From positions 30,059 to 94,058 of IMG/VR virus record IMGVR_UViG_3300045391_002864: DNA of 64,000 nt. One strand, 5' to 3'. Shown here piece by piece: positions 164 to 62,697 of the stretch (the stretch's first letter is position 1; each line of letters begins with the position of its first letter). The translations under genes and the position numbers were made by a program. This stretch comes from a virus. The notes beneath the pieces were generated by a model. The model searched no databases and had not been told where the DNA came from. It saw only the letters and a program-made list of their open reading frames with translations.

Positions 164-1837
164 CTAGCTCTTTCCTTTTTCAGATGCAGAATCACGCCGG
201 ACACCGCTCACGGCACCGTGCGCCTCTGACTTCGCGGGATCGCGCTTCTCGCCCGTTTTGGCTCCACGGTCCTTCTCGTCATCGGCATTGCCGCTATCGT
301 CTACGCCGAGCGCGGCCTTCAGTACAATGCTTGCAAGGGTGGTGAAGGCGCCGGTCTGATTGGAGTCGGTCGGGCATAGGCCCATCAGCTTGCCGAGCAG
401 CTTGAACTCTTTCGGGTACAGGCTTTCGGTGGGCGGAAGATCGGCCATGGCGCGGCGCTCGTCCTGCGTCTGCGCCTGGGAGCGGGCTTCGTATTCTCGC
501 GCATCTTCTTTGGGGTTTTTGCCGCAGAAGGTGAAGCGAAACTCCGGCCACCGGCTCCACAAGATGGGGTTGATGTGGTTTTCAAGCGAGATCAGCAGAG
601 GAGACAGGCCGGGATCGTCGTCGCCGATCATAGCTGTGCTCTGGTCCGGCGGCGGAGCGGAATCAGTCGTGCCGCCGGACGGATGATAGCCGAGGCGCTG
701 TGGCGGGAAGTTCCAAGTCGCGCAGAACACGCCGGCGACGAGGTTCATATGATCTTTGTAGAAAATATCGGTCCCTTTGAGGTCTTTCAGCGACATGATC
801 TCCATGTTGCCGTCCTTCGGGACATTGATCGCAGGGAAGGTCCAGGCTTTGGAAATCCCCTTCTTCATGTTGTTCCAGGCGCGCGTCAGAAGATCGACTT
901 GGCGCTGCGTCCAGTAATCCCCCTTCAACAGCAGAATGCCTTGCGGCAGCGTGGATTTATCGAACGTGTCGCTGTTGAAGTTCAGGGCGTTCTCGAACGC
1001 GCCAATCATCTTGATTGACTGCCCGGCCTCGGGGTAGCCGTAGCCGGCGACTTCCGGGTCGGTGCGCGGGTTGCGGACGCTCCAGTTCAGTTCGCCGCGC
1101 GTGAAGGACTCGCGAGGGTTGTTCGTGTCGTCGATCAGCACCGCGAATTTTGATGGGTCGCCGTTGAAGCCCTCGCGCGTGCAGAGGCGGATCAGGTAGG
1201 AGGGCAGGGCGGCAAATGCGACGACGCGGCCGGCGTTGTCGCGCTGTGTCCATGTCGCCATGCCATCGAAGCGCATGCTGTCGCGGACCAGCATGCGCAG
1301 ATAAGTGTCGAACGACGAGAGATGCATTTCATCGCGCTCGACCGTCTGCGTCATCCCGGTCTCGATGTTGCAGTTCAGAAGAAACGCTTCGGCTTTCCGC
1401 ATCTCGCGCCGCTGCGACTCCGTCATGTGCGCGCTGCCGTCGATCATCTCCAGGCGCCAGCCGGGTTTCCAGGGCTGAGCCGAGATACGGCTATAGCGCA
1501 CCACGTCATTGACGCGCATCTGCACGATCATCTTCGGCGCGAAATTCTCGTCGCAAACTTTCTTCAGGGAGCGTGGATCAATGCCGGGCCACTCGACGAT
1601 GTTCTTGCCGGAAATCGTCGGCATGTACGAAATGGTGCCGTAGGACTGCGCACTCGGAACTGCCTCGACGGCTTTGGAAAGCGCATCGGCGTGTCGGAAG
1701 AATGAATCCTCGTCGAAAATCGTGCTGCCCATCAGGGACGACTTGAACGTCGGGAGTTTTGCCGAGGTATGGACGACGCCAGACATCGCGTCGACATCCC
1801 ATCCGTTCGGATCGTATGGTTCCCGGTATTCGCTCAT
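164..1837 (-). CDS. Phage portal protein
   Basis: Follows TerL with TGATG overlap (start MSEYREP at 1837); NPRTD..GYGYP, LPQGILLLKG, F.P.RLG portal-like motifs. Confidence 0.85.
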   Translation of the reverse strand: MSEYREPYDPNGWDVDAMSGVVHTSAKLPTFKSSLMGSTIFDEDSFFRHADALSKAVEAVPSAQSYGTISYMPTISGKNIVEWPGIDPRSLKKVCDENFAPKMIVQMRVNDVVRYSRISAQPWKPGWRLEMIDGSAHMTESQRREMRKAEAFLLNCNIETGMTQTVERDEMHLSSFDTYLRMLVRDSMRFDGMATWTQRDNAGRVVAFAALPSYLIRLCTREGFNGDPSKFAVLIDDTNNPRESFTRGELNWSVRNPRTDPEVAGYGYPEAGQSIKMIGAFENALNFNSDTFDKSTLPQGILLLKGDYWTQRQVDLLTRAWNNMKKGISKAWTFPAINVPKDGNMEIMSLKDLKGTDIFYKDHMNLVAGVFCATWNFPPQRLGYHPSGGTTDSAPPPDQSTAMIGDDDPGLSPLLISLENHINPILWSRWPEFRFTFCGKNPKEDAREYEARSQAQTQDERRAMADLPPTESLYPKEFKLLGKLMGLCPTDSNQTGAFTTLASIVLKAALGVDDSGNADDEKDRGAKTGEKRDPAKSEAHGAVSGVRRDSASEKGKS

Positions 1838-3726
1838 CAAAAACCACGTCCTAGCATCTGGAGTGCGCCCCGCTCGCGATAATCCCAACAGGAGTCGAAC
1901 GGGATGGCCGCGCGCTTGTGAAGGCCACACCAGTTCCTTACACCGGGTTGCCCAGGTTTCCCGTGACCATGCCACATCTCACATGTGCCGCAGGCGTTAT
2001 AGAGCGGATGTTCGGATAGATCGGAGCCGAGCTTCGCGATCTCCTCCAGCACATTCACCGGCCTGCCCTCTTCAATCTCGTCCGGCGATGCAGCTGCCAG
2101 AGCATCGCTGCTGGGTAGTCGAGCCATGCCGACACCGGCCTCGATCGCGTGTGCGATCAGGTAGACGGTGGCGTCGACTTGGTCTTTCCTGCCGGCACGT
2201 GTGCCGGAGAACTCCAAAAACTCTGTCGTGTACGCCTTGCCCCAGGCAGCGCCGTCCAGAAGCACGACGCGGTGCTGACGGAACCAGCCTTGCACAGAGG
2301 CGTGGGAGCCGCCCACGGCGTCGACAGCGCGGTCCATTTTGCCGTCCTTGGCTGTCACACCACGGATCGGGATGCCGCTGCTGATGAAGGACTGTAGCAG
2401 CTGAATGCCGGACGATCTGTTCTCGACAAGGACCAGCTGCGGTTGCCATAGCCCGTTCTGCTTTCGGAAGGCATTCGATAGCTCGCCGAAGTCGAGCTTT
2501 TCGCGCAGTACGTCGACGACGTACACGCGGTTATGGCGCTCGCATTGGCCGACGACCTTTTCATCCTCGCCGCGCCACCATTGATCAGACGGGACGAGAA
2601 TGCCTGTCACACAGACCGAATAGGCGCTGTCGGACGACTTACCGGCCGCCGTATCCCATACTTGGATCACTGTGCCCTGCGTGCGCTCGATAAAGCCGCG
2701 CACGGCCGGCGAGTGGATGCCGAGGGCTGCATCCGCTGGGCTGACGTCGCGGAACGTGATAAAGTCGGCGTCCTCGAAAACCGGATTCTCTCTGACGTTC
2801 GGGTTGCACTGATACACGGCTTCAGCGAGGGCGGGTGTCGCACGCTTGATGCTCTCGAACTCGCTCCGCTTTGACTTAGACCCAGGCCAGTAGAAGCCCT
2901 TCCCAGTGTGGTCGACGCCGTAATACGCCTTGTATTTGACGTACGGTTTGTCCGGGTCTTGGCCGGGAAGTGGTGTCAGATTCTCGCTGAACCAACACGG
3001 CATCGGCGAGCCATCTTCCAGCTTCGGCACTTTGACGTCATGCCATAGCTCATGCGAGCCCTTGCGCTCCGCCGGGCACTCCAGCACGACCCAGTCGCCA
3101 GATTCGATCAGCGCACCGTACACGTCCGCGCGGTTGAAGCGCCGACCGGACAGGACGTACCGGGCGCCTCGCGGATCGGCGCGGCCGAGGATGGTGTTAT
3201 AGAACGTGTCGACGACCTTCTGGCACTGCTCCGCTGACGCCGAGTTGTCCTTGTTGTGCAAGTCATCCATGATGATCTCGCGACCATGGAGACCCGTGAG
3301 CGTTCGGCTATCGATGCCGACGCCGATAAAACTGGCGTCCGGGTCGCCCGCCGCATGCCCGGTGACGTAGAGGCCCTTTTCGGTCGACCAGCCGCGCTTC
3401 TTGTCTGGCGTGACTTCTGGATAGAGCTTACGGAATGCTTTGTCCGTCTCGATGATTTCGCCGATGGCCTCTTGGAAGCCCTTAACGAGTCCTTCGCCCG
3501 CGCTAATGGCGATGATCGTGGTATCGGGCTGCTCGCCCAGGCGCCACGCCGGATATACCTGAGAGGTTATGGTGGACTTACCCGTGCCCGGCGGGCCAAT
3601 CAGGATCAGCTTGTTGATGCGGAAATCTTCAAGCGCGAGGCAGACATGGATGTGATGCGGCGCGATCGAGAAGCCGCGATCCTTGTAAATCGCATTGTAG
3701 AAGCCGGACAAGCTGTTTTTGAGCAT
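1837..3726 (-). CDS. terL: Terminase large subunit
   Basis: Walker A GPPGTGKS, Walker B IIMDD, nuclease motifs WDTA, VENRSSG, DQVDA. Confidence 0.93.
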   Translation of the reverse strand: MLKNSLSGFYNAIYKDRGFSIAPHHIHVCLALEDFRINKLILIGPPGTGKSTITSQVYPAWRLGEQPDTTIIAISAGEGLVKGFQEAIGEIIETDKAFRKLYPEVTPDKKRGWSTEKGLYVTGHAAGDPDASFIGVGIDSRTLTGLHGREIIMDDLHNKDNSASAEQCQKVVDTFYNTILGRADPRGARYVLSGRRFNRADVYGALIESGDWVVLECPAERKGSHELWHDVKVPKLEDGSPMPCWFSENLTPLPGQDPDKPYVKYKAYYGVDHTGKGFYWPGSKSKRSEFESIKRATPALAEAVYQCNPNVRENPVFEDADFITFRDVSPADAALGIHSPAVRGFIERTQGTVIQVWDTAAGKSSDSAYSVCVTGILVPSDQWWRGEDEKVVGQCERHNRVYVVDVLREKLDFGELSNAFRKQNGLWQPQLVLVENRSSGIQLLQSFISSGIPIRGVTAKDGKMDRAVDAVGGSHASVQGWFRQHRVVLLDGAAWGKAYTTEFLEFSGTRAGRKDQVDATVYLIAHAIEAGVGMARLPSSDALAAASPDEIEEGRPVNVLEEIAKLGSDLSEHPLYNACGTCEMWHGHGKPGQPGVRNWCGLHKRAAIPFDSCWDYRERGALQMLGRGF

Positions 3727-3759
3727 GCCCGGCTATTACGGCCGGTCTGTGAAGTGCCC

Positions 3760-4572
3760 CTAGACCACGGATGAGAATCGCGTCGTCGCCGTCGCACCGA
3801 ATTTCAGGAGCTTCTTCATCGCGGCTTGGTGGAGTTGGGCGACACCCTGCTTCGTGCCGCCGAGCGCTGCCGCGATGACCGAAAATGGCTCCTCTCTGAA
3901 ATCGTGCCGGATGACGATGTGGCGCTGGCGCTCGGTTAGTGTGCCGAGGGCTTCCTGCACTAGCCGGCGTTGATCTTCCGCATAGACGGCGTCCTCTGCG
4001 GACTCATCCTCTGATGGAATCTCGTCGCAGACGGTCGTGTCGCCATCTGCAGCTACCATTTCGCTCGCGGATGTCTCATTTTGCGCGTTAAGCGCACTGC
4101 GCAGATCGCTTTCTGCGACCCCCAGCACTGCAGCGATCTCGGCGTCTGTCGCGGCATCGCCGAGTTTCTCCCGTGCCTTGCTGATGTTTTTGAGCGTACG
4201 CTGATAGGCGCTGGCCAGCTTCACAGAAAGAGCGGATGAGTTCTGTATCGCGTATTCATGGATCGATGTTAACGCCCATCCGATGGCATACGTGCCAAAC
4301 CCCGAGGCATGCTCTTTGGTGTGTGTATCGAGAGCGCGCAGTATCCCGGCGATCCCGGCCTGCACGAAGTCCTGCACCTCATCATGGCGCCCGTAGCGCT
4401 TGTGCTGGAGTCGTGCAATCCTCACGACGGCGGGCGTATAAGCCTTCACGATTTCGCCTTGCGCTCGCTTGTCACCGCTCGTTTGCCACTTCTCGACGAG
4501 GGCTGATATCTCGTATGCTTTGTAGTTTCGGGTTCGCTTCGAAATCGATCGGATGTAGGTGTCATCAGACAT
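3760..4572 (-). CDS. Sigma70-family RNA polymerase sigma factor
   Basis: Region 2 DFVQAGIAGILRALD..FGTYA.GW; region 4 LTERQRHIV..IAAALGGTKQGVAQL. Confidence 0.88.
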   Translation of the reverse strand: MSDDTYIRSISKRTRNYKAYEISALVEKWQTSGDKRAQGEIVKAYTPAVVRIARLQHKRYGRHDEVQDFVQAGIAGILRALDTHTKEHASGFGTYAIGWALTSIHEYAIQNSSALSVKLASAYQRTLKNISKAREKLGDAATDAEIAAVLGVAESDLRSALNAQNETSASEMVAADGDTTVCDEIPSEDESAEDAVYAEDQRRLVQEALGTLTERQRHIVIRHDFREEPFSVIAAALGGTKQGVAQLHQAAMKKLLKFGATATTRFSSVV

Positions 4573-4591
4573 GTTGCAACTTCATCAAAGT

Positions 4592-4625
4592 AAAAGGGCC
4601 GGGCGCGTGATAGCGACCGGCCCTT
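4592..4625 (-). terminator. Hairpin plus U-tract immediately upstream of sigma gene
   Basis: aagggccgg / ccggccctt stem with a T run on the minus strand. Confidence 0.45.
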
Positions 4626-4655
4626 GTTAACGTCAATAGCGCTAGCAGAAGTTTT

Positions 4656-4820
4656 TTAAGCCACCTCGACGCTAACCCCATAGATGTCACGCAATGTCGC
4701 GACGATCTCGGGCTCGCGCGCCCGAAGCCGCTCCAGTTCGAGGCGCAACGCATCGATTTTCTGCTCGCGCGTCATCTCGGGCACTTCGGGGACGGTGTAT
4801 GCAGTGCGTCGGCGCCGCAT
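4656..4820 (-). CDS. Small hypothetical protein (54 aa)
   Basis: Manually read ORF MRRRRTAYTVPEVPEMTREQKID..., directly after GapR stop. Confidence 0.6.
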   Translation of the reverse strand: MRRRRTAYTVPEVPEMTREQKIDALRLELERLRAREPEIVATLRDIYGVSVEVA

Positions 4821-4822
4821 AG

Positions 4823-5287
4823 TCACATGCCCAGCGCGCGGCGATAGACGTCCAGAAGCGTCTCCTGTTCCTCGATCTCGGCCGGGTCTTTCCCGCGCAA
4901 CCGCAGGAGAGCGCGAAGCACCTTCACATCGAAGCCGGCAGACTTCGCTTCCGAGAAAATATCCTTGATATCCGAGCCGAGGGCCTTGCGCTCCTCTTCC
5001 AAGCGTTCGATGCGCTCGACGATGCTGCGCAGGCGGTTGGCCGCAACATTGGTTGGCTTCTCGTCGGTGGTGGTGTCGATCATGGGCTTCGTGTCTCCAG
5101 AGTTATCGCCGATCGCGGCGGCGGGTACGCCCAGTTCTTCCATTGTCACGGCGCCTTTCAGCGGCTTCATGGTCGAGGTCTGGATGAGGTAGTAATAGGC
5201 GTCGTACTCGGAATCCGCCGGGCGATACTCGATGTGAGTATCCTCCTCGCGGTTGACGAACCGGCCATTGATGCGTTGCCAAGCCAT
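4823..5287 (-). CDS. gapR: GapR/DUF2312 nucleoid-associated protein with N-terminal extension
   Basis: LRSIVERIERLEEERKALGSDIKDIFSEAKSAGFDVKVLRALLRLR..EQETLLDVYRRALGM. Confidence 0.92.
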   Translation of the reverse strand: MAWQRINGRFVNREEDTHIEYRPADSEYDAYYYLIQTSTMKPLKGAVTMEELGVPAAAIGDNSGDTKPMIDTTTDEKPTNVAANRLRSIVERIERLEEERKALGSDIKDIFSEAKSAGFDVKVLRALLRLRGKDPAEIEEQETLLDVYRRALGM

Positions 5288-5544
5288 TATGCTGCCATCC
5301 TCATTGCAATGGGTGTTCCGCCTGTCGGCGGGGGCGGGGCGACCGGGCTCGCCGGCTCCATGGCGAGGACGCGCGCGGCGAGGCCGTTGATCTCCGCCAG
5401 CCGGCCGAGAGTCAGGTCCGGGTACTCCCGGCAGAACGCGGACAGGCGCGCCACGTCGCGGGCGTTGACGTGCCCGTGGGGCTGGGTCGGGGCCTTGGCG
5501 ACTATGTCAGCAAGGGCCACGTCCCCGTTTTCCCGTGCATCCAT
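5287..5544 (-). CDS. Hypothetical protein
   Basis: Translationally coupled ORF in operon. Confidence 0.65.
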   Translation of the reverse strand: MDARENGDVALADIVAKAPTQPHGHVNARDVARLSAFCREYPDLTLGRLAEINGLAARVLAMEPASPVAPPPPTGGTPIAMRMAA

Positions 5545-5814
5545 TTACCGGCCGACGCCCAGGTGGATCAGCAGCCACGTAATGAAGAGCAAGATTGTCC
5601 AGGTGAATGCCTTCTGGCCTTCACTGAGCTTCGAATCAGCCTTGGGGTGCTGAACGACGATCCCCAGCAGGCCGATAATCATGAATAGGCGCCAGAAGCC
5701 GAAGTGGAGCCCCAGGTAGTCGAACAAGCCCAGCTGGAGGATATACACGCGGAAGAACGAGTTGAAGACCTGCAACGCGAACGCGGTCAGGCAGGCGACG
5801 AAGCGGATAAACAC
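5545..5814 (-). CDS. Small membrane protein
   Basis: Three hydrophobic segments; coupled to neighbours. Confidence 0.7.
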   Translation of the reverse strand: MFIRFVACLTAFALQVFNSFFRVYILQLGLFDYLGLHFGFWRLFMIIGLLGIVVQHPKADSKLSEGQKAFTWTILLFITWLLIHLGVGR

Positions 5815-6581
5815 TATGCGAATTCCTTTTGGTGGATGGAGTTGACGGCGGCCAGGACCGCGTCGACGCTGATCTCGCGCATTGTCGGGCCGCGCACATG
5901 GACGCCATGGCGGGTCTCCGCGAACATCGGCGGCACGGTGCCCGGATAAAGCAGGACGTGCTCGCGCTTCTGTAGAAGCTGAGCGAGATGGCTGATCCCG
6001 GTATCGATCGTGATGAGCGCGGCAGCATTGACGACGATATCGGTAACGTGCCCCATGTTGAAACCCACGATCGCAGTCGCGCCGGCTTCCTCGTACGGCG
6101 TGGTGTCGTCCTCGTGCGCACCGAGTACGAGCACGCTGCCGTCCAGCCGCGAGATCAGTTGCTGCCAGTGCTCGACGGGCCAGACCTTATTGCCGGCGAT
6201 GTCTGTGCGGCTGAACGGCGCAACCGCGTAGTCGAATAAGTACGCAAATTCCGAGTGCTTGGCAGGGAAAGGGAGATCGACGGGCATTTCGAGCCCGTTG
6301 TAGGTGAAATGTGCTTCAGACATGTGCAGGCGCCAATCGGAATCCTGAGCAGCCCCCCATGCGCGCGTCGGGCTCACTTCGACGGTGCGGGCGCAGAAGG
6401 GCGCACCATCCTGATCGAATTGGAACTTTTCAGGCCACCAGACGCCCTCGCGCACCCAGGCGTTGAAGCCTGGGCCGACGAATGCGTACTCGCCGTCCTG
6501 CTCCTGCGCATGAATCATGAACGGAACTGCAGCGAGGGCGTCGCCGATCAGGCCGCAGCTTTTAGCATCGAAATAGATCAT
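5814..6581 (-). CDS. Glycosyltransferase family 9 (heptosyltransferase-like)
   Basis: IGDAL.A.P, K.WP.EHWQQL, ITIDTGISHLA..L....VLLY motifs. Confidence 0.75.
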   Translation of the reverse strand: MIYFDAKSCGLIGDALAAVPFMIHAQEQDGEYAFVGPGFNAWVREGVWWPEKFQFDQDGAPFCARTVEVSPTRAWGAAQDSDWRLHMSEAHFTYNGLEMPVDLPFPAKHSEFAYLFDYAVAPFSRTDIAGNKVWPVEHWQQLISRLDGSVLVLGAHEDDTTPYEEAGATAIVGFNMGHVTDIVVNAAALITIDTGISHLAQLLQKREHVLLYPGTVPPMFAETRHGVHVRGPTMREISVDAVLAAVNSIHQKEFA

Positions 6582-6587
6582 AGGTGC

Positions 6588-6836
6588 TCAGTGCAGCGCT
6601 GGATCGACGTCTTGATCGGCGTCATTTCCGGTGTCGATCACGTAGCGGAGAACCTTGCACATGTCCTCGGCCTTTTGCTTGCCGATGATGAATGTCCCAT
6701 GCACCTCGAAATTCCCCGGACTGATGACTTCGGTTAAGACGATCTTCACCTCGCCATCGGGCATACGGAGCAGCAGGAATCCGTTTACGAAAATGGCCGG
6801 CTCTGCCAGCAAATCACTCGGGTCCATCTCAGGCAT
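6588..6836 (-). CDS. Hypothetical protein
   Basis: ORF in operon orientation. Confidence 0.65.
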   Translation of the reverse strand: MPEMDPSDLLAEPAIFVNGFLLLRMPDGEVKIVLTEVISPGNFEVHGTFIIGKQKAEDMCKVLRYVIDTGNDADQDVDPALH

Positions 6837-6924
6837 GCCTTTCAGTTACTGACAATGCCCTTAACGCTAGCCGGCAGGTGACGTCAAGGCGTTGCTTCCC
6901 GCAGCGCCTCGACCGTCATCGCGC

Positions 6925-7152
6925 TCATTGCGAAGCGCGACCTACACTCAGGTTGTCGTCGGCATCGCCGATCAGGGCGGCATCGAGCACGTCCAGAAGA
7001 TCACAGGCTTTGGTGTGAATCGCCTTGACGTCCGCCCCTTCAGAAAGGGCCTCAAACGACCCTTGGATATGACCGGCCGATTCCGCGTCTTGAACCGCCG
7101 AAAGGAATCCAGCTGTGGCTTTCGCAACCGTCTTAATCTGATTGATATTCAT
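6925..7152 (-). CDS. Hypothetical protein
   Basis: Start MNINQIK with AAGGA RBS. Confidence 0.6.
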   Translation of the reverse strand: MNINQIKTVAKATAGFLSAVQDAESAGHIQGSFEALSEGADVKAIHTKACDLLDVLDAALIGDADDNLSVGRASQ

Positions 7153-7287
7153 AGAACGTAGTGATCCTTTTAGTGACAATAGCAGTATTGAGGTCGCATG
7201 CCTGTGCACAATAGTCAACGCAGTGTGGAGACCTGCTCACATAATTTTATAGGTTGTGCCTGTGAAAAAGAAATTATTCCGGCTCCC

Positions 7288-7331
7288 TTGACGGAGCGCG
7301 GAAGGAGTCTTATGGCAGCGACATTGTCGCT
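7288..7331 (+). promoter_or_regulatory. Sigma70-like promoter TTGACG-N17-TATGGC overlapped by perfect palindrome AGCGACATTGTCGCT
   Basis: Read directly; points into the ORF-free structured region. Confidence 0.55.
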
Positions 7332-7605
7332 AATGGTGCTGTCAGGTTGGCGTAAGGATTACTAGGCTTGGATACGGGTTACTCCGCCGCCTGCACGTCC
7401 GCAGGCGGTGCCTTGTTACTTCAAGACTGGGCTTTTGCTGCACTGCAAGCAAAAGAGGCCGGAGTGAATGAGAAAATATACTGACCCTCACGTTTTGGGC
7501 CGAATGCCGCGCTAGATTGCGACGAGAGGAACAGACTCTCGTACTAGCGTCGGCCCATTTTTCGGTGGCGGACCCCGATAATCTCTATCTACAGTGCCGC
7601 CGCGT
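7325..7605 (+). ncRNA. Candidate structured non-coding RNA (~280 nt), family unknown
   Basis: Eight nested stems; G-U pairs favour the + strand; no ORF; upstream promoter. Confidence 0.55.
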
Positions 7606-7619
7606 TAGTGTCAATGTCG

Positions 7620-7988
7620 CTAAAACTCCCATACAGGAACGCCGGCCGCCCTAGCTTTTGACACCATATCGGCCGTGCCACGCCCGCCAGCGAATGCAGC
7701 AACTGCGTCCGGCCGCTCCTGGCGTAGCATGAGACTGTTCCTGATAGGGCCGGCGGCATTGCCGTGTGTACTCCAGTCAGCAGTATATGGCCGCACGGAT
7801 ATACCGTTCAGCCGTGCCCAGGTATCCGCAATGATATCGGCACTCACCGTTCCGTCATCACCGAAGCGCGGCCGTGCATCTCCGTGAATGATGATACTGA
7901 TCGGAAACAGCGAATGCGTGAAGTCGAGCGCCCGGTGGAGGTATCCCCAGTCGGCATACGCCCGGCCGCCGCAGACGAGGAGCTTCAT
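7620..7988 (-). CDS. SLOG-family protein (DUF2493/YspA-like)
   Basis: KLLVCGGR.Y.D, IIIHGDA, ADW..HGNAAGPIRN..ML, AFAGGRGTADMV. Confidence 0.88.
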   Translation of the reverse strand: MKLLVCGGRAYADWGYLHRALDFTHSLFPISIIIHGDARPRFGDDGTVSADIIADTWARLNGISVRPYTADWSTHGNAAGPIRNSLMLRQERPDAVAAFAGGRGTADMVSKARAAGVPVWEF

Positions 7989-8272
7989 GGCGACCGCCAT
8001 AGCTCCGGCCACTCCACCAAATCAGCCCTGGCAACGATCGTGGCGCGGTCCCGATCAGCGAAAGCGAGTGCTGTCAGTTCGCCGTGCCCTGCCACGTGGC
8101 CCATAGGTCCGCACAGCTGCGCTAGCAGAGATGCCTCGATCTCCCGCTCGCATGTCTTGAATGCGGCATAAGTTACTCGATAAACGACGTCGTCCGTGAC
8201 CGGCATGCCGACGAACGGCTCCAGAGCGGCCTCCAGCCGCCCGACGATACCGAAGATATCATCCATCCTCAT
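7985..8272 (-). CDS. Hypothetical protein
   Basis: ATGA overlaps on both sides. Confidence 0.65.
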   Translation of the reverse strand: MRMDDIFGIVGRLEAALEPFVGMPVTDDVVYRVTYAAFKTCEREIEASLLAQLCGPMGHVAGHGELTALAFADRDRATIVARADLVEWPELWRSP

Positions 8273-9159
8273 GCCGCGTGCCGCGCTAGGACGTCCTGCA
8301 TGTCGCGGATCAGGCGTTCGACGGATGGCTCACGCCGCACCGCGTCCTGAATCGACCCGAAGTGCATCTCCAGACAGTTCATCAGGATTTCCTTCAGCGC
8401 GGCCTCATCTGGCGAGTGCGGCAGCGTCGAGGAGGCGTACGTGTTCTCCAGATGACGCTCTTTCTCCTCGAAATGCCGCTCGATCTGCTCCATCGTCCAT
8501 TCGCCGCGCCGGACGCTTTTCAGCTGCTCCCGATTACGCTCCAGATCTAGGTTGCCTTCGACCATGATCTGTTCGATTTCGTCGAGAAGCCGGACGACGT
8601 GATAGGCGAACTTGACGTCATAGCCGTACTTCGCGATGGACTCCGCGCGCGCAGGGTTCGTCGAGTTCGTCTTCGCCTTGATCTTATGCATCTGCGAGTA
8701 GGCATAGCCCCGGAACTTGTGCCACGCGCCTTTGTGTAGGAACTTGCGCCGGCTCTCGCGCACGATCTCCCCGACTGCCGTCGAGTGCATGACGCAGCGG
8801 CGCGGCGTGAACAGGCTGTCGATCATGTTCGGGTTGCATTCCATGCACAGTTGGAAATACCGAACGATGCTGAAGACCTGAATGTCGTACGTGATGTCGC
8901 GACCGTCCGGCGCCGGGATATGGTGTTGCTGCCACTGATTGAAGCGCTCCGGCTGGCGACCAAATCCGAAGATTTCGCCGGCCAGATGCGGGAACACGAC
9001 GTCCTTCGGCGGGATGCAAAAGCCGTACAGATCGACGTCGGAGCTATCGCCGGATACGCCGTACGAGACCGATCCCATGACCGTCAGATACTGACAGCTG
9101 TCGACGAGCCAGCGCGGCGTCTGGATAGCATTTGCGGAGCGCAGCTTCTGTAGGATCAT
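8269..9159 (-). CDS. Pol-beta superfamily nucleotidyltransferase (RlaP/PF10127-like)
   Basis: MGSVSYG....SDVDLYG, CNPNMIDSL, F.GYA..Q, YDVK.AYHVVRLL, L..VRRGE; start MILQK at 9159. Confidence 0.85.
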   Translation of the reverse strand: MILQKLRSANAIQTPRWLVDSCQYLTVMGSVSYGVSGDSSDVDLYGFCIPPKDVVFPHLAGEIFGFGRQPERFNQWQQHHIPAPDGRDITYDIQVFSIVRYFQLCMECNPNMIDSLFTPRRCVMHSTAVGEIVRESRRKFLHKGAWHKFRGYAYSQMHKIKAKTNSTNPARAESIAKYGYDVKFAYHVVRLLDEIEQIMVEGNLDLERNREQLKSVRRGEWTMEQIERHFEEKERHLENTYASSTLPHSPDEAALKEILMNCLEMHFGSIQDAVRREPSVERLIRDMQDVLARHAA

Positions 9160-9326
9160 TTGCACACCTCTCTGACGACGGTTGCGATGTCGTCCGGGTC
9201 CATGTCCGGCCAGCGCTCCAGGGCCTGCGCCATCGCAAGCGGCCATGTCGCGGCCTTTCCATTGGCCTCGCGCCGGGCTTTCCAGCCCCGGAGCGTGTTG
9301 ATGGCGCTTTTGACCTCCGGGCTCAT
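9156..9326 (-). CDS. Small hypothetical protein (56 aa)
   Basis: Manually read ORF MSPEVKSAINTLRGW..., ATGA overlaps on both ends. Confidence 0.6.
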   Translation of the reverse strand: MSPEVKSAINTLRGWKARREANGKAATWPLAMAQALERWPDMDPDDIATVVREVCK

Positions 9327-10072
9327 AGCTTCTTCTCGATATCGCTGAATACATCTTCGGCGACGAACGTGAAGGAGTCACCAACCGGCGTACTCTGGGC
9401 ACGGGAGTCTTTCATGCGGAAGGGGCCGTTGCTGAGGAGCAGCGACACATCGGCGTTCAGGTACATCTCCCTGGCGCACGGATGCAATGGCTTCAACTCA
9501 TGAATGGGATATATGATCTCGCGGAGTGGCCGGCGCGATGCGAGCGCGACCTGGGCCATGGAGCGGTTGATCTGTTCATCGGCGATCGCCCATAGCTGCG
9601 GGTCGCCCTCGCGCAGCACCTCCAGCAGCAGTGCCTTCTCGCGCAGGTACGTGCGGGCGAACTCAGGGTCGTGCGCGACGATCGACCGCGTGTTGTCGAT
9701 CAGGTCGGCGAGTTTGATGGTCTTCGCTGCCGCGCATGCTAGGGCAGTGTGCGCGCGGTCGATCGCTTTGCGCTCCGCACGGTTGCCGTCTTCCAGCTTC
9801 GACACATCCGTCAGCTGGCGCACGAGCGCGGCCACGTGCCATCCGAACTCGGCCTTGATTGCGTATTCGTCGACTTCCGTGTCCTCGACGACGTCGTGCA
9901 GCCACGCGGCGGCAAGCATTTCCTGCGTGTGATCGACTGAAGCGACGATCCTCGCGACCGCTTCGGGATGCACGATGTAGGGATCGTTCGTGTATTTTCG
10001 GGTCTGGCCGATCGCGGCGTGTGCTACTGTCGCGAACAGGCGGGCTTTTTCAACGAGGTCTATCATGGTCAT
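9323..10072 (-). CDS. HD-domain protein, RelA/SpoT hydrolase-like (small alarmone hydrolase type)
   Basis: AH..Q.RK....PYIVHP..VA, AAWLHDVVEDT, IKLADLIDN. Confidence 0.87.
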   Translation of the reverse strand: MTMIDLVEKARLFATVAHAAIGQTRKYTNDPYIVHPEAVARIVASVDHTQEMLAAAWLHDVVEDTEVDEYAIKAEFGWHVAALVRQLTDVSKLEDGNRAERKAIDRAHTALACAAAKTIKLADLIDNTRSIVAHDPEFARTYLREKALLLEVLREGDPQLWAIADEQINRSMAQVALASRRPLREIIYPIHELKPLHPCAREMYLNADVSLLLSNGPFRMKDSRAQSTPVGDSFTFVAEDVFSDIEKKL

Positions 10073-10339
10073 TGACGCTAAGGCGCGCCGTGGCGGCCGT
10101 CAACGCGCCTCATGGCTTGTAAAGACGTTTTCGTTTTAGAATCAAAAATTTTTTGGAAGGGGCAGGGCGATACGAGACGCAAAATGCGGAGTAGTAAGGA
10201 GTTGTAAAGGGAAATAGCATTTTGGCTAAAAACCTCGCGTGGGTAAGCCGTTATAGCGGAGGGTCATTGAGCCGCCGCCCTCACCTGCGCCGGGGTCAAA
10301 GATGCAGAATAAACCTACAACAAAGCAAAAATACGATAG

Positions 10340-10426
10340 TACGCGCTTCACGTATACGTAAAGCGCGTATTTTCGTCTGATTTGCTATCTGTGGTGCTTG
10401 ACGTACATACGTCAAGTGCGTATAAG
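10340..10426 (+). promoter_or_regulatory. Early promoter TTGACG-N17-TATAAG with three TACG-N7-CGTA sites
   Basis: Sites at 10340, 10355 and 10408 read directly. Confidence 0.7.
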
Positions 10427-13639: not shown

Positions 13640-13682
13640 TTGACTCTATACGTGCTTTGCGTAGAACAGTGACATTGTCACT
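13640..13682 (+). promoter_or_regulatory. Promoter TTGACT-N16-TAGAAC with TACG-N7-CGTA site and perfect AGTGACATTGTCACT palindrome
   Basis: Read directly. Confidence 0.65.
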
Positions 13683-17282: not shown

Positions 17283-17543
17283 CGCCTTGGGAACGAGTGT
17301 CACGGATGGAGATGCGTTTTAAGCGTGCTGGTCGATCATCCGTTGCTCGTGACCCGTTTTAAGCACTCTGAGTCATTCTTTCTCCCGTCTGTGTGAATCA
17401 TGCGGGAGCGGTGCGGACGGCGCAAGGCGCCCTAGCGCCGCCGCGCAGGGAGCAGCGCGTTCATAAGCCAGTTTGCGACTCATGTGTGGTCGCACGGGTA
17501 TGTATGTATTAAACGCTATTCTTGCTTCGTAAGAAGCATAGGG

Positions 17544-17782
17544 GGTTTTTGGTAATGACAAACGTCCTTTTTAACCTGCCAAAAACCGACTTTTACCCTG
17601 TAATTCGTGGTTTCTACCCTAAAAACGAGAAACCAAAAACCGCCTATATATGGTTGGTTTTTGGCGCGGTAGAAACCAAAAACCACCTATATGTAGGCCG
17701 TTTTTGGTTTCTACCGGAACAGTGGATGGATTACCACATTAGCGTCCCCAGGTAAGTTAACGGCATTGACCGTAACCAAAAA
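17544..17782. repeat. Direct and inverted repeat cluster (GGTAGAAACCAAAAAC units), origin candidate
   Basis: 17 bp perfect IR 17667-17683/17700-17716; 9 bp IR 17633-41/17656-64; 22 bp DR 17628/17671; AT-rich. Confidence 0.75.
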
Positions 17783-17845
17783 TATACTTACCAAGCGACT
17801 ATATACTGGCAATGACGCTAGAAGCTCGGCTTGAAAGAATCATGA

Positions 17846-18745
17846 ATGCGCCCTGGAGACAGTTTTACCCTTCCGTCAGAAGTAGACTTTGGATGCGAAG
17901 GCAGCTTAGCGTCCGGCACGGTCTGGCGACGCTATGAGTGCACGGGCACTGAGATCGTGAAGGACAAGAAATACCGTAAAAACGAACTGGCGGTCGTAGA
18001 GGGCCGCTGTCTCGCGTCCGGGTGCGAGACAGCGATCCGCGTGCTCGTGCCGGCGGTATGGCCCTCGTCCTATGCGCCCGGATTTGTCTTCGACGGTAAG
18101 AGAAAGGTATTCCGGCCGAGCCGAACGTATGCCTTCCTGCCGTTCTGCGCCGCGCACAGCCGAAACATGATTGATTCGAAGAGGGAACCGACCGGCATGT
18201 CTCCGGGGCGGCCGGGCTTCAAGCTGGAGCGCCTGGAGCTTGCCATCCTCTTGCGGGCCGCGCTGGTCCCTCAGACCTACGCTGACGTCCTGGCGTGGCT
18301 TCCGCAGTTGCCGCCTGACGTGCTCGATGAGAGCGGCTATGTGGCGGAGCGGGACAACTCGCGCTGGCTGCAGCGCATCGCCGTGGATATGGGGGAGACG
18401 ATGCGCGCCGGGAAGAAAGTCGGAAAGGGTCTGCTCTGCGATATCGCGCAGTCTCGGATGCGCACGTTTTACACGCGGCCGGGCTCTGCCGTGTACGACG
18501 TGCCGCTGGCGAACCGCCTTACGCAGCGGATGTATATGGAGGAACTTGCCGACGCGCCCGGCGCCGACGAGGTCATGTTCGCGATGGAGGGCCTATCTGA
18601 CAATCCGACCGACGACGAGATTGCAGCGTCCACTCCGCTTATCGAGCAGGCGCGCGGCATCAACATGATCCGCGTAGCCGAAGGTCTGGCGCCCCTACCA
18701 TTCTGGAGCGACGAGCGCTACGCTGCTCTCGCCCCTGGCGCTTGA
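17846..18745 (+). CDS. Hypothetical protein (299 aa)
   Basis: Long ORF downstream of repeat cluster; Cys/His pattern in N-terminal half. Confidence 0.7.
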   Translation: MRPGDSFTLPSEVDFGCEGSLASGTVWRRYECTGTEIVKDKKYRKNELAVVEGRCLASGCETAIRVLVPAVWPSSYAPGFVFDGKRKVFRPSRTYAFLPFCAAHSRNMIDSKREPTGMSPGRPGFKLERLELAILLRAALVPQTYADVLAWLPQLPPDVLDESGYVAERDNSRWLQRIAVDMGETMRAGKKVGKGLLCDIAQSRMRTFYTRPGSAVYDVPLANRLTQRMYMEELADAPGADEVMFAMEGLSDNPTDDEIAASTPLIEQARGINMIRVAEGLAPLPFWSDERYAALAPGA

Positions 18746-61344: not shown

Positions 61345-62697
61345 TTGTCCAGAAAGCCAGGGTCCGTTGAACTCCGCGCCCGAGAGTTAGCCAAACAAGC
61401 GGGCGTCGACCCCGATAGCCGTATCGAGAAGTTCGGGAGCGAGCGGGGCATGCCGGCATGGTGCGCCTTCCGCGACGATGCGCAGCGCGAGATCACGCAC
61501 AACGAGATCACGAAAGCGGCCATGAACATTGCGGGCATGCGCGCCCAAGAGCCGCAGTATCAGAATAGCCCCTTGACTGTCCTCGGCGAGCACGAGGAAG
61601 CCACGATTCAGCAGATGAAAAACTGCATGAGCGTCGGCAACGTGGTCGGCGGCGTGATCTGCGCGGACGGCCACCTCGGGTATGCGCAGCCTGTCGGCGG
61701 CGTCACCGCGTACGAGCGCCAGATCAGCATCAGCGGCGTCGGCTTCGATATCGGCTGCGGCAACATGGCCGTGCGCCTGGATGTCCCGTACTCACGCATT
61801 GCGCCATGGACCGACGCTCTGCTCCACGACATTAAGCGCACGATCTCGTTCGGCATCGGGCGGGTGAACGACGAGCGGGCCGAACACGAGCTTTTCGACG
61901 ATGACGAGGCATGGCGTGCGGCCGACATGGAGGGCTATCGCAATAAGGCCCGCCAGCAACTGGGCACGGTCGGGTCCGGCAATCACTACGTCGACCTGAT
62001 GTACGACGAGGCCGGCTTCGTCTGGATCGGCGTGCATTTCGGCTCGCGCGGCCTCGGGCACACGACGGCGACGAAATACCTGAAGCTGGCCGGCGGCAAG
62101 GACGGCATGCACGTCCCTCCGGCGATCGTCGACGAGGACAGTGAACTCGGCCAGCGCTACATCGCAGCAATGGAGTTGGCAGGCCGCTACGCCTACGCCG
62201 GCAGGGAATGGGTCGTCGAGCGCGTGCGCCGGATGATCGGCGGCGCGGTGCAGGATACGGTCCATAACCACCACAATTACGCCTGGAGAGAGACGCACGG
62301 CGGGCGCAGCCTATGGGTTGTGCGCAAGGGCGCCACACCGGCCTTTCCCGGCCAGAGGGGCTTCGTAGGCGGCTCCATGGGCGATGACGCGGTCATCATC
62401 GAGGGTGTCGATAGCGAGCAGGCGAGGGCGGCCCTGCATTCGACCGTGCATGGCGCCGGCCGCACGTTCGGCCGCCAGGAGGCGAAGCGCCGCTTCACGC
62501 GCCAGGAGATGGACCAGTGGCTGCGCAAGCGCGGCGTGCGGCTGGCCGGCGGCGATCTCGACGAGAGCCCGATGGCTTATCGCCGCCTTCCCGACGTCCT
62601 CGCGCACCACACCGATAGCGTCAATGTCGTTCACACGCTGCGTCCGTTTGCGGTCGCGATGGCCGGCAGCGACGATTTCGACCCGTTCAAAGACTGA
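61345..62697 (+). CDS. rtcB: RtcB RNA ligase
   Basis: DGHLGY, GFDIGCG, LGTVGSGNHY, HFGSRG, HHNYA, VRKGAT, GSMG, HGAGR, DESP.AY. Confidence 0.95.
   Translation: MSRKPGSVELRARELAKQAGVDPDSRIEKFGSERGMPAWCAFRDDAQREITHNEITKAAMNIAGMRAQEPQYQNSPLTVLGEHEEATIQQMKNCMSVGNVVGGVICADGHLGYAQPVGGVTAYERQISISGVGFDIGCGNMAVRLDVPYSRIAPWTDALLHDIKRTISFGIGRVNDERAEHELFDDDEAWRAADMEGYRNKARQQLGTVGSGNHYVDLMYDEAGFVWIGVHFGSRGLGHTTATKYLKLAGGKDGMHVPPAIVDEDSELGQRYIAAMELAGRYAYAGREWVVERVRRMIGGAVQDTVHNHHNYAWRETHGGRSLWVVRKGATPAFPGQRGFVGGSMGDDAVIIEGVDSEQARAALHSTVHGAGRTFGRQEAKRRFTRQEMDQWLRKRGVRLAGGDLDESPMAYRRLPDVLAHHTDSVNVVHTLRPFAVAMAGSDDFDPFKD

Follow-up and report, generated by a model that had tools for sequence, protein, structure and literature searches.

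The locus considered here raises a simple question, namely whether the 468-nt gap (7153-7619) that separates two minus-strand genes of a phage gives rise to an RNA of its own. The source record is a complete 94,058-bp IMG/VR phage genome with direct terminal repeats and a GC content of about 60%. The window, by which we mean the whole stretch of 64,000 nucleotides that was analyzed, corresponds to bases 30059-94058 of that record. Intergenic gaps of 300-600 nt are numerous in this genome, so the size of the gap is by itself unremarkable. A sequence-only reading of the window had proposed that the gap encodes a novel, independently regulated and structured RNA. We lean slightly toward the existence of a plus-strand transcript at 7323-7562. 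We also propose, more tentatively and at a little less than an even chance, that this operator-controlled unit plays a cis-antisense or transcriptional-interference role at an operon junction. The features used in the argument are collected in Table 1.

Table 1. Coordinates of the genes, operators, promoter-like elements and RNA modules in and around the gap (positions in the window).
Feature	Position	Strand	Remarks
g75, 75-aa ORFan	6925..7152	-	left border of the gap; ATG at 7152, AAGGA upstream
Weak operator copy	7170..7188	.	PWM 14.0 bits; just upstream of g75
-35-like TTGACT	7213..7218	-	candidate proximal promoter of g75; no good -10 visible
A/T-rich tract	7264..7279	+	about -59 to -44 of the rightward promoter candidate, putative UP-element position; genome 60% GC
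Promoter-like TTGACG-N17-TATGGC	7288..7316	+	faces right, against the flanking genes; operator-linked geometry
Operator palindrome GCAGCGACATTGTCGCTAA, perfect 15-bp core	7315..7333	.	PWM 26.5 bits, zero mismatches; covers the predicted transcription start
Predicted non-coding transcript, about 240 nt	7323..7562	+	putative start 7 nt after the -10; putative end at the T5 run
Module A, closing stem and three hairpins, four-way junction	7379..7467	both strands fold	
A-rich linker between modules A and B	7468..7496		unpaired in the centroids of both strands; partly paired in the MFE
Module B, irregular 60-nt hairpin (7497-7556), then A-TTTTT	7497..7562	+	terminator-like on (+) only
Hairpin C, G-U pairs on (+)	7563..7602		z -1.79 (+), -1.42 (-), not significant
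Promoter-like TTGACA-N17-TAGATA	7586..7614	-	faces left; putative -35 within the palindrome
Operator palindrome TTAGTGTCAATGTCGCTAA	7605..7623	.	PWM 28.6 bits; overlaps the SLOG stop codon
SLOG/YspA gene	7620..8012	-	right border of the gap; PF10686, Pfam E 5.8e-14; phrog_289
RlaP nucleotidyltransferase	8269-9402	-	PF10127
HD_4 hydrolase	9323-10072	-	

All the genes from 164 to 10072 lie on the minus strand, so that a rightward promoter in the gap does face opposite to all flanking genes, as had been claimed. On the right side, transcription runs through the HD, RlaP and 95-aa (g95) reading frames before reaching the SLOG gene, whose TAG stop codon is found at 7620-7622 on the minus strand. 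On the left side, the only match of g75 among 5.8 billion proteins was itself, a called 75-aa protein, and its single-sequence model consisted of three helices predicted with low confidence (pLDDT 62). Beyond g75 come an 82-aa ORF (g82), a GT9-like gene, a GapR-like gene, a sigma-70 family protein and TerL. An RtcB gene is located at 61612-62658, i.e., 54 kb from the gap. The GapR-like domain (4823-5287, minus strand) is 76-83% identical to copies from Asaia, Roseomonas, Acidocella and Gluconobacter and, judging from this identity, the host of the phage is probably a member of the Acetobacteraceae.

The region had been described as free of open reading frames, and this description holds for 7153-7619, where the codon score of every ORF was negative. 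The GC content of the gap ORFs is flat over codon positions, with a GC3 of 0.46-0.56 vs. 0.75 ± 0.05 in the 59 confident genes, and Pfam and PHROGs searches with these ORFs gave no match. Neither gene-like codon-position GC or codon usage nor homologs were found for any of them. Recoding of stop codons was ruled out, as mixed stop codons are present in every frame.

Copies of a palindrome common to the whole genome were said to lie at both ends of the element. Both copies were recovered, and the genome-wide character of the palindrome was confirmed by a position weight matrix, which found 45 sites of at least 13 bits in the 94 kb vs. 0-1 in shuffled sequences. The consensus is TTAGCGACAATGTCGCTAA; with at most 2 mismatches it has 22 matches in the window, when 7.0 ± 2.5 are expected. 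The sites are mostly intergenic and close to promoters, often with a TTGAC box at fixed distances ahead of them. Four copies are gathered within 800 bp (6846, 7170, 7315, and 7605, of which 7170 is weak); the last two belong to the best five of the genome, and the one at 7315-7333 is among only a few perfect copies. We ruled out that the palindrome works as an RNA hairpin, as the outer positions of one half change independently of those of the other. This independent variation fits a dimeric DNA-binding protein.

The core of the palindrome, G[C/T]GACAWTGTC[G/A]C, includes the exact matS consensus of E. coli, GTGACATTGTCAC (PMC8669397), which is present at window positions 13669-13681 and belongs to the set of about 45 sites of the genome. 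No homolog of MatP (PF06303) is encoded by the phage. Acetobacteraceae, the likely host family, are not known to use MatP.

The rightward promoter announced by the sequence-only reading is correct with regard to its hexamers, as TTGACG (7288-7293) and TATGGC (7311-7316) are indeed separated by 17 nt, and incorrect if taken as a consensus promoter. Under the sigma-70 criterion that we used (TTGACA-N16-18-TATAAT, at least 9 matches out of 12 and a T at the last -10 position), the element reaches 8 of 12, ends in C, and was not called by the scan. Support for it is confined to its relation to the operator, as TTGAC boxes recur at a few distances from the palindrome. A distance of 26-28 nt is shared by the rightward element (7288/7315, 27 nt) and by two elements located upstream of plus-strand operons, at 13640(+) (26 nt) and 20258(+) (28 nt). 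A distance of 30-31 nt characterizes the gene-proximal sites at -157 and 52538, upstream of a 1167-aa gene and a 469-aa gene, as well as the box at 7218(-) upstream of g75, which lies 30 nt upstream of the weak palindrome at 7170 on the minus strand. A third class, at 22-23 nt, groups 6887(-), 10103(-) and 39270(+). Finally, at three sites the TTGAC motif is located within the palindrome, with TA after a spacer of N16-18; two of them, 17766(+) and 60959(+), precede co-oriented genes, and the third is 7614(-). Most of the other elements combining TTGACG and the palindrome (-157, 6846, 10063) are found directly upstream of the start of a co-oriented gene. By analogy with these sites, the gap appears to hold three promoter-like elements, i.e., one proximal to g75, the rightward one at 7288-7316 and the leftward one at 7614-7586; the predicted starts of the latter two are about 256 bp apart. 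In the element at 10063-10103 (minus strand), the ATG of the HD gene (10072) forms the center of a palindrome copy whose start is 16 nt past the TTGACG box. No ribosome-binding site is found upstream of this gene, and its mRNA may be leaderless.

Module B is closed by a 7-bp GC stem (7497-7503/7550-7556) and followed by an A and a T5 run ending at 7562. This hairpin is long and irregular (60 nt) and was missed by a simple terminator scan. With -31 kcal/mol, it is one of the six strongest among the 44 hairpin-plus-T5 sites of the genome, which are enriched about four-fold in intergenic DNA. Two of these six are located inside genes, on the antisense strand, so a chance origin is possible for such sites. 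On the minus strand, no U-run was found after the hairpins of the gap, and no canonical terminator was found past SLOG. In this genome, consensus promoter and terminator scans showed no enrichment over shuffled sequences, thus no signal of the gap is strong on its own. At 4600-4640, on the minus strand, a canonical hairpin followed by TTTT contains a palindrome copy (4627) and lies just upstream of the start of the sigma factor (4572), whose expression may depend on regulated read-through at this site.

The reading that we favor is the following. The gap would be a regulatory junction, governed by the genome-wide palindromic operator, between the minus-strand unit to its right, HD-RlaP-g95-SLOG, and that of g75 to its left, with g82 and the later genes lying beyond g75 behind their own promoter-like element at 6887. 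The operator-covered promoter at 7288-7316 would fire rightward, against the flow of the neighboring genes, and give a hairpin-rich non-coding RNA of about 240 nt. This RNA would end at the hairpin followed by U5 (7497-7562), just short of the facing leftward element at 7614-7586. It would act most likely in cis, since its sequence would be the exact complement of whatever leftward transcript passes through the gap, be it SLOG read-through or a leader made from the 7614 promoter. Since no canonical minus-strand terminator follows SLOG, leftward read-through, which is the proposed target, is plausible. Synthesis of the plus strand may then decouple or dampen leftward expression, either by antisense pairing or by transcriptional interference, and the regulator that binds the palindrome would shut the plus-strand promoter off. 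In this scheme, the signals with their spacing, the lack of coding character and the moderately unusual local folding are observed, while promoter firing, termination at the hairpin, the two transcript ends and antisense action are what we infer. An independently regulated plus-strand unit is plausible in view of the spacing shared with 13640 and 20258, the A/T tract, and the hairpin with its T5 run, whereas the other part of the original claim, a discrete and specifically folded RNA, is unsupported, with neither an Rfam family nor a homolog found for it.

The fold itself was compared on both strands. The eight stems listed in the sequence-only reading do pair at their positions. The whole element (7288-7623) folds at -131.3 kcal/mol on the plus strand (z -3.19) and -114.7 kcal/mol on the minus strand (z -2.26). 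The closing helix of this fold is formed by the two operator copies pairing together, which partly accounts for the z of -3.19. When the operators were left out (7334-7604), the z-scores were -2.81 (+) and -2.32 (-), and the predicted transcript (7323-7564) had a z of -1.99 on the plus strand. The comparison of folding energy with controls thus leaves a modestly unusual fold, whose z weakens at each of these steps (-3.2, then -2.8, then -2.0). As a background, the phage genome was sampled in 837 windows, each 336 nt long and folded on both strands, and the MFE was regressed on GC and G+T; after this correction, the element stood at the 4.7th percentile (+) and the 9.4th percentile (-). When the initial 41 kb of the genome were scanned in 90-nt windows, a z of -3 or lower was obtained for 3.7% of the strand-windows, and the three best windows of the gap fell between the 2nd and 5th percentiles among 500-nt blocks, one of them being driven by the DNA palindrome itself. 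In the left third of the gap, folding was not significant. The local structure of the gap is therefore moderately unusual, to a modest degree. The nested structure of about 280 nt survives in its local hairpins and not as a global fold, as the centroids retain the local hairpins only. The case for a stable, specifically folded RNA at the gap is weak. The 90-nt scan also revealed far more structured windows (z -5 to -8 on one or both strands) at 10308-10397 and 4593-4682, as well as at distances of about 23.9 kb and 27.5 kb ahead of the first base of the window, and 17431-17880 stands out in the 336-nt scan with a z of about -4.

Also, the fold does not point to one strand. G-U pairs had been taken as favoring the plus strand, which was not borne out: the strand difference of 16.6 kcal/mol for the element is accounted for by the G+T content, and a difference of at least this size was found in 16% of the 336-nt windows. 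Module A folds at -41.6 kcal/mol (z -3.18) on the plus strand and -41.9 kcal/mol (z -4.24) on the minus strand, and module B (-31.8 kcal/mol) has a z of -3.94 (+) and -3.65 (-). The MFE frequencies of modules A and B are 0.13 and 0.30 on the minus strand vs. 0.04 and 0.12 on the plus strand. Neither of the predicted transcripts includes hairpin C, which speaks against the favored reading.

These comparisons bear on the main alternative, which we consider unlikely but worth weighing. In this view the plus strand yields no product, and the hairpins are part of the minus-strand mRNA, where they would form the end of the SLOG operon transcript (3'), an intercistronic spacer, or a g75 leader of about 425 nt. 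The hairpins would then be stabilizers, processing sites or non-canonical terminators, and the palindromes and TTGAC boxes would regulate leftward transcription only. The orientation of the flanking genes agrees with this explanation, and so does the finding that the modules are equal or better, and better defined, on the minus strand, the energy difference between strands being one of base composition. The leftward element at 7614-7586, arranged as at two gene-proximal sites, would fit as well. However, none of the minus-strand hairpins has a U-run behind it, and a 425-nt leader would be unneeded for g75, which has its own proximal -35-like box and operator. Also, the explanation does not account for the rightward geometry of TTGACG and operator or for the T5 run after hairpin B.

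It is improbable that the gap is simply spacer DNA, with functionless hairpins and hexamers and only the operators having a role, for example in the looping of sites 290 bp apart. The background of the genome itself, among which the structure ranks just at the 2nd-5th percentile, speaks for such a spacer, as do the many long intergenic gaps and the windows elsewhere that are far more structured. Nevertheless, a functionless spacer leaves as a coincidence that promoter geometry, a perfect operator, and a hairpin with T5 occur in the right order and orientation.

Known families and relatives of the region were then sought. The sequence-only reading recognized no signature of tRNA, tmRNA, RNase P or hammerhead, and we reached the same result with Rfam 15, whose 4227 models include 6S, tmRNA, RNase P, Y RNA/YrlA, pRNA, ribozymes and riboswitches. 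There was no match at gathering thresholds in the whole window, including to ribozyme and RNase P models, and none at E<=10 on 7280-7630; the only hits were two chance fragments outside the element (E 1.6 and 8.6). ARAGORN detected no tRNA or tmRNA gene in the window. When its default thresholds were lowered to 80% for 7100-7700, it still called nothing, and at 70% only spurious intron-containing calls appeared there. The arms of module A, of about 9, 4 and 8 bp, do not have tRNA geometry. Ro/TROVE (PF05731) is absent from the complete 94-kb genome, in a search to which control genomes responded. A tRNA-like or Y RNA-like element was thus rejected on the basis of ARAGORN and of the absent Ro/TROVE.

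The region had no match in 50,697 phage records by megablast or blastn, exact 22-23-mers from it were absent from IMG/VR and metagenome contigs, and there is no paralogous copy elsewhere in the phage. Blastn and nhmmer searches of loci carrying homologs of SLOG, RlaP and other genes did not find the RNA region. No related phage was found in IMG/VR through RlaP, SLOG, TerL, the sigma factor or GapR. The SLOG and RlaP matches were only 39-55% identical, with no shared synteny, and none of the loci compared had two genes in common with this one. The nearest SLOG among 5.8 billion proteins, that of Bordetella phage PHB04, is 55% identical and not syntenic, and among cultured phages the closest TerL reaches an identity of about 24%. 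A TerL pattern search of IMG/VR and GTDB genomes returned nothing (TerL being the only query for GTDB), and in 401 Acetobacteraceae genomes TerL gave only partial matches of 27-37%. In the same 401 genomes, blastn with the region produced short matches in 95, mostly on one GC-rich arm, CTCCGCCGCCTGCAC; these were not retained as homologs and are read as an effect of base composition, and the eight that were inspected all lie in coding-like DNA. As judged from these searches, the phage is a singleton without sequenced relatives. On a 188-kb IMG/VR contig (L003:5001-7016), an RlaP homolog is interrupted, with about 1.1 kb separating the parts that match the query up to residue 262 and from residue 256, which could correspond to an intron, an intein or an inserted gene.

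That 7323-7562 would be a new, family-less structured RNA acting in trans, e.g., as a decoy or scaffold in RNA processing or repair, is very improbable in this context. In such an RNA, the four-way junction would be joined by an A-rich single strand to the long hairpin at its end, and the whole would be switched by the global palindrome-binding regulator. We are still more doubtful of the narrower proposal of a specifically folded trans-acting RNA (decoy, scaffold or substrate) working with SLOG, RlaP and HD or with RtcB. In its favor, module A forms a compact four-way junction, RtcB is encoded by the phage, and RlaP acts on RNA 3' ends, where it is reported to extend damaged RNAs, tRNA among them, by one or two nucleotides (bioRxiv 10.64898/2025.12.29.696909). 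The abstract of the same preprint mentions no dedicated partner RNA. Against it stand the results from Rfam and ARAGORN, the lack of a Ro/TROVE partner, and the centroids, which consist of separate hairpins and not of a global architecture. The link that had been drawn between the RNA and the SLOG, nucleotidyltransferase and HD genes is unsupported, as it consists of adjacency alone and no other SLOG/RlaP locus shares a similar RNA or synteny. The candidate resembles the Y RNA/YrlA systems, which in bacteria and in certain phages go together with Rsr (Ro) and RtcB, in that it occurs in an RtcB-encoding genome. However, it has no TROVE/Ro, no Rfam match and no tRNA-like module, and RtcB is 54 kb away. 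It also resembles pRNA of the phi29 type (about 120-170 nt) as a phage-encoded multi-helix candidate with a helical junction, but it has no Rfam match to this RNA and belongs to a 94-kb genome of an unrelated phage with a TerL of another family.

The least probable alternative is a small plus-strand protein gene. Its main candidate is the 38-aa ORF 7368-7484 (+), which has a TTG start with AAGGA 9 nt upstream and was the sole gap ORF with a plausible ribosome-binding site in that search. This ORF could be coupled to a 17-aa ORF (7312-7365, +) opened by GGAAGGAG-N4-ATG, which includes its own ribosome-binding site. AAGG(A/G) is the usual ribosome-binding motif at the starts of the inspected genes of this phage, the order of promoter, operator, ribosome-binding site, ORF and terminator is gene-like, the 17-aa ORF stops 2 nt ahead of the TTG start, and hairpin B with its T5 run begins 13 nt past the 38-aa ORF. 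The AAGGA of the 38-aa ORF sits within the 17-aa ORF, a layout which resembles translational coupling, with no coding signal. This gene is most unlikely, since the 38-aa ORF has a GC3 of 0.51, flat GC over codon positions, a codon score of -2.1, no relative among 1.84 billion representatives and a 10-bp GC hairpin 17 nt inside it, and the 17-aa ORF contains the operator and begins upstream of the predicted transcription start.

The operator-controlled plus-strand unit can be compared with known phage systems. Temperate phages produce short cis-antisense RNAs with mapped targets, such as oop of lambda, sar of P22 and c4 of P1/P7, of about 70-80 nt, which have their own promoter directed against the neighboring genes and a hairpin terminator at their end. 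In P1, the antisense promoter is under a repressor whose operators are scattered genome-wide. The candidate is likewise non-coding and oriented against its neighbors, with its own putative promoter and a hairpin end, but it is longer (about 240 nt), has no sequence similarity to these RNAs, and both its transcript and its target are putative. Face-to-face promoters are known in coliphages 186 (pR/pL) and P2 (Pe/Pc), where tens of bp separate the two starts and each promoter reads into an operon of protein-coding genes. Here also two promoter-like elements face each other, each overlapped by an operator, and interference is possible. The distance between the predicted starts is larger than in 186 and P2, at about 256 bp, and the unit read rightward is gene-free and seems to terminate before the other promoter. 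Then, with about 45 copies of one site, mostly intergenic and near promoters, the palindrome recalls the C1 operators of P1 and the stoperators of cluster A mycobacteriophages; these are asymmetric, whereas the site described here is a 19-bp palindrome.

The candidate is single and unreplicated and opens no long-standing question. The useful outcomes are a cleaner map of the junction and the result that neither the thermodynamic argument nor that from G-U pairs distinguishes the plus strand. If the transcript exists, it would be an antisense RNA that is controlled by a regulator and made where two operons meet, in a lineage of phages without cultured or sequenced relatives, and it would help to decode the network of about 45 operator sites in this phage.
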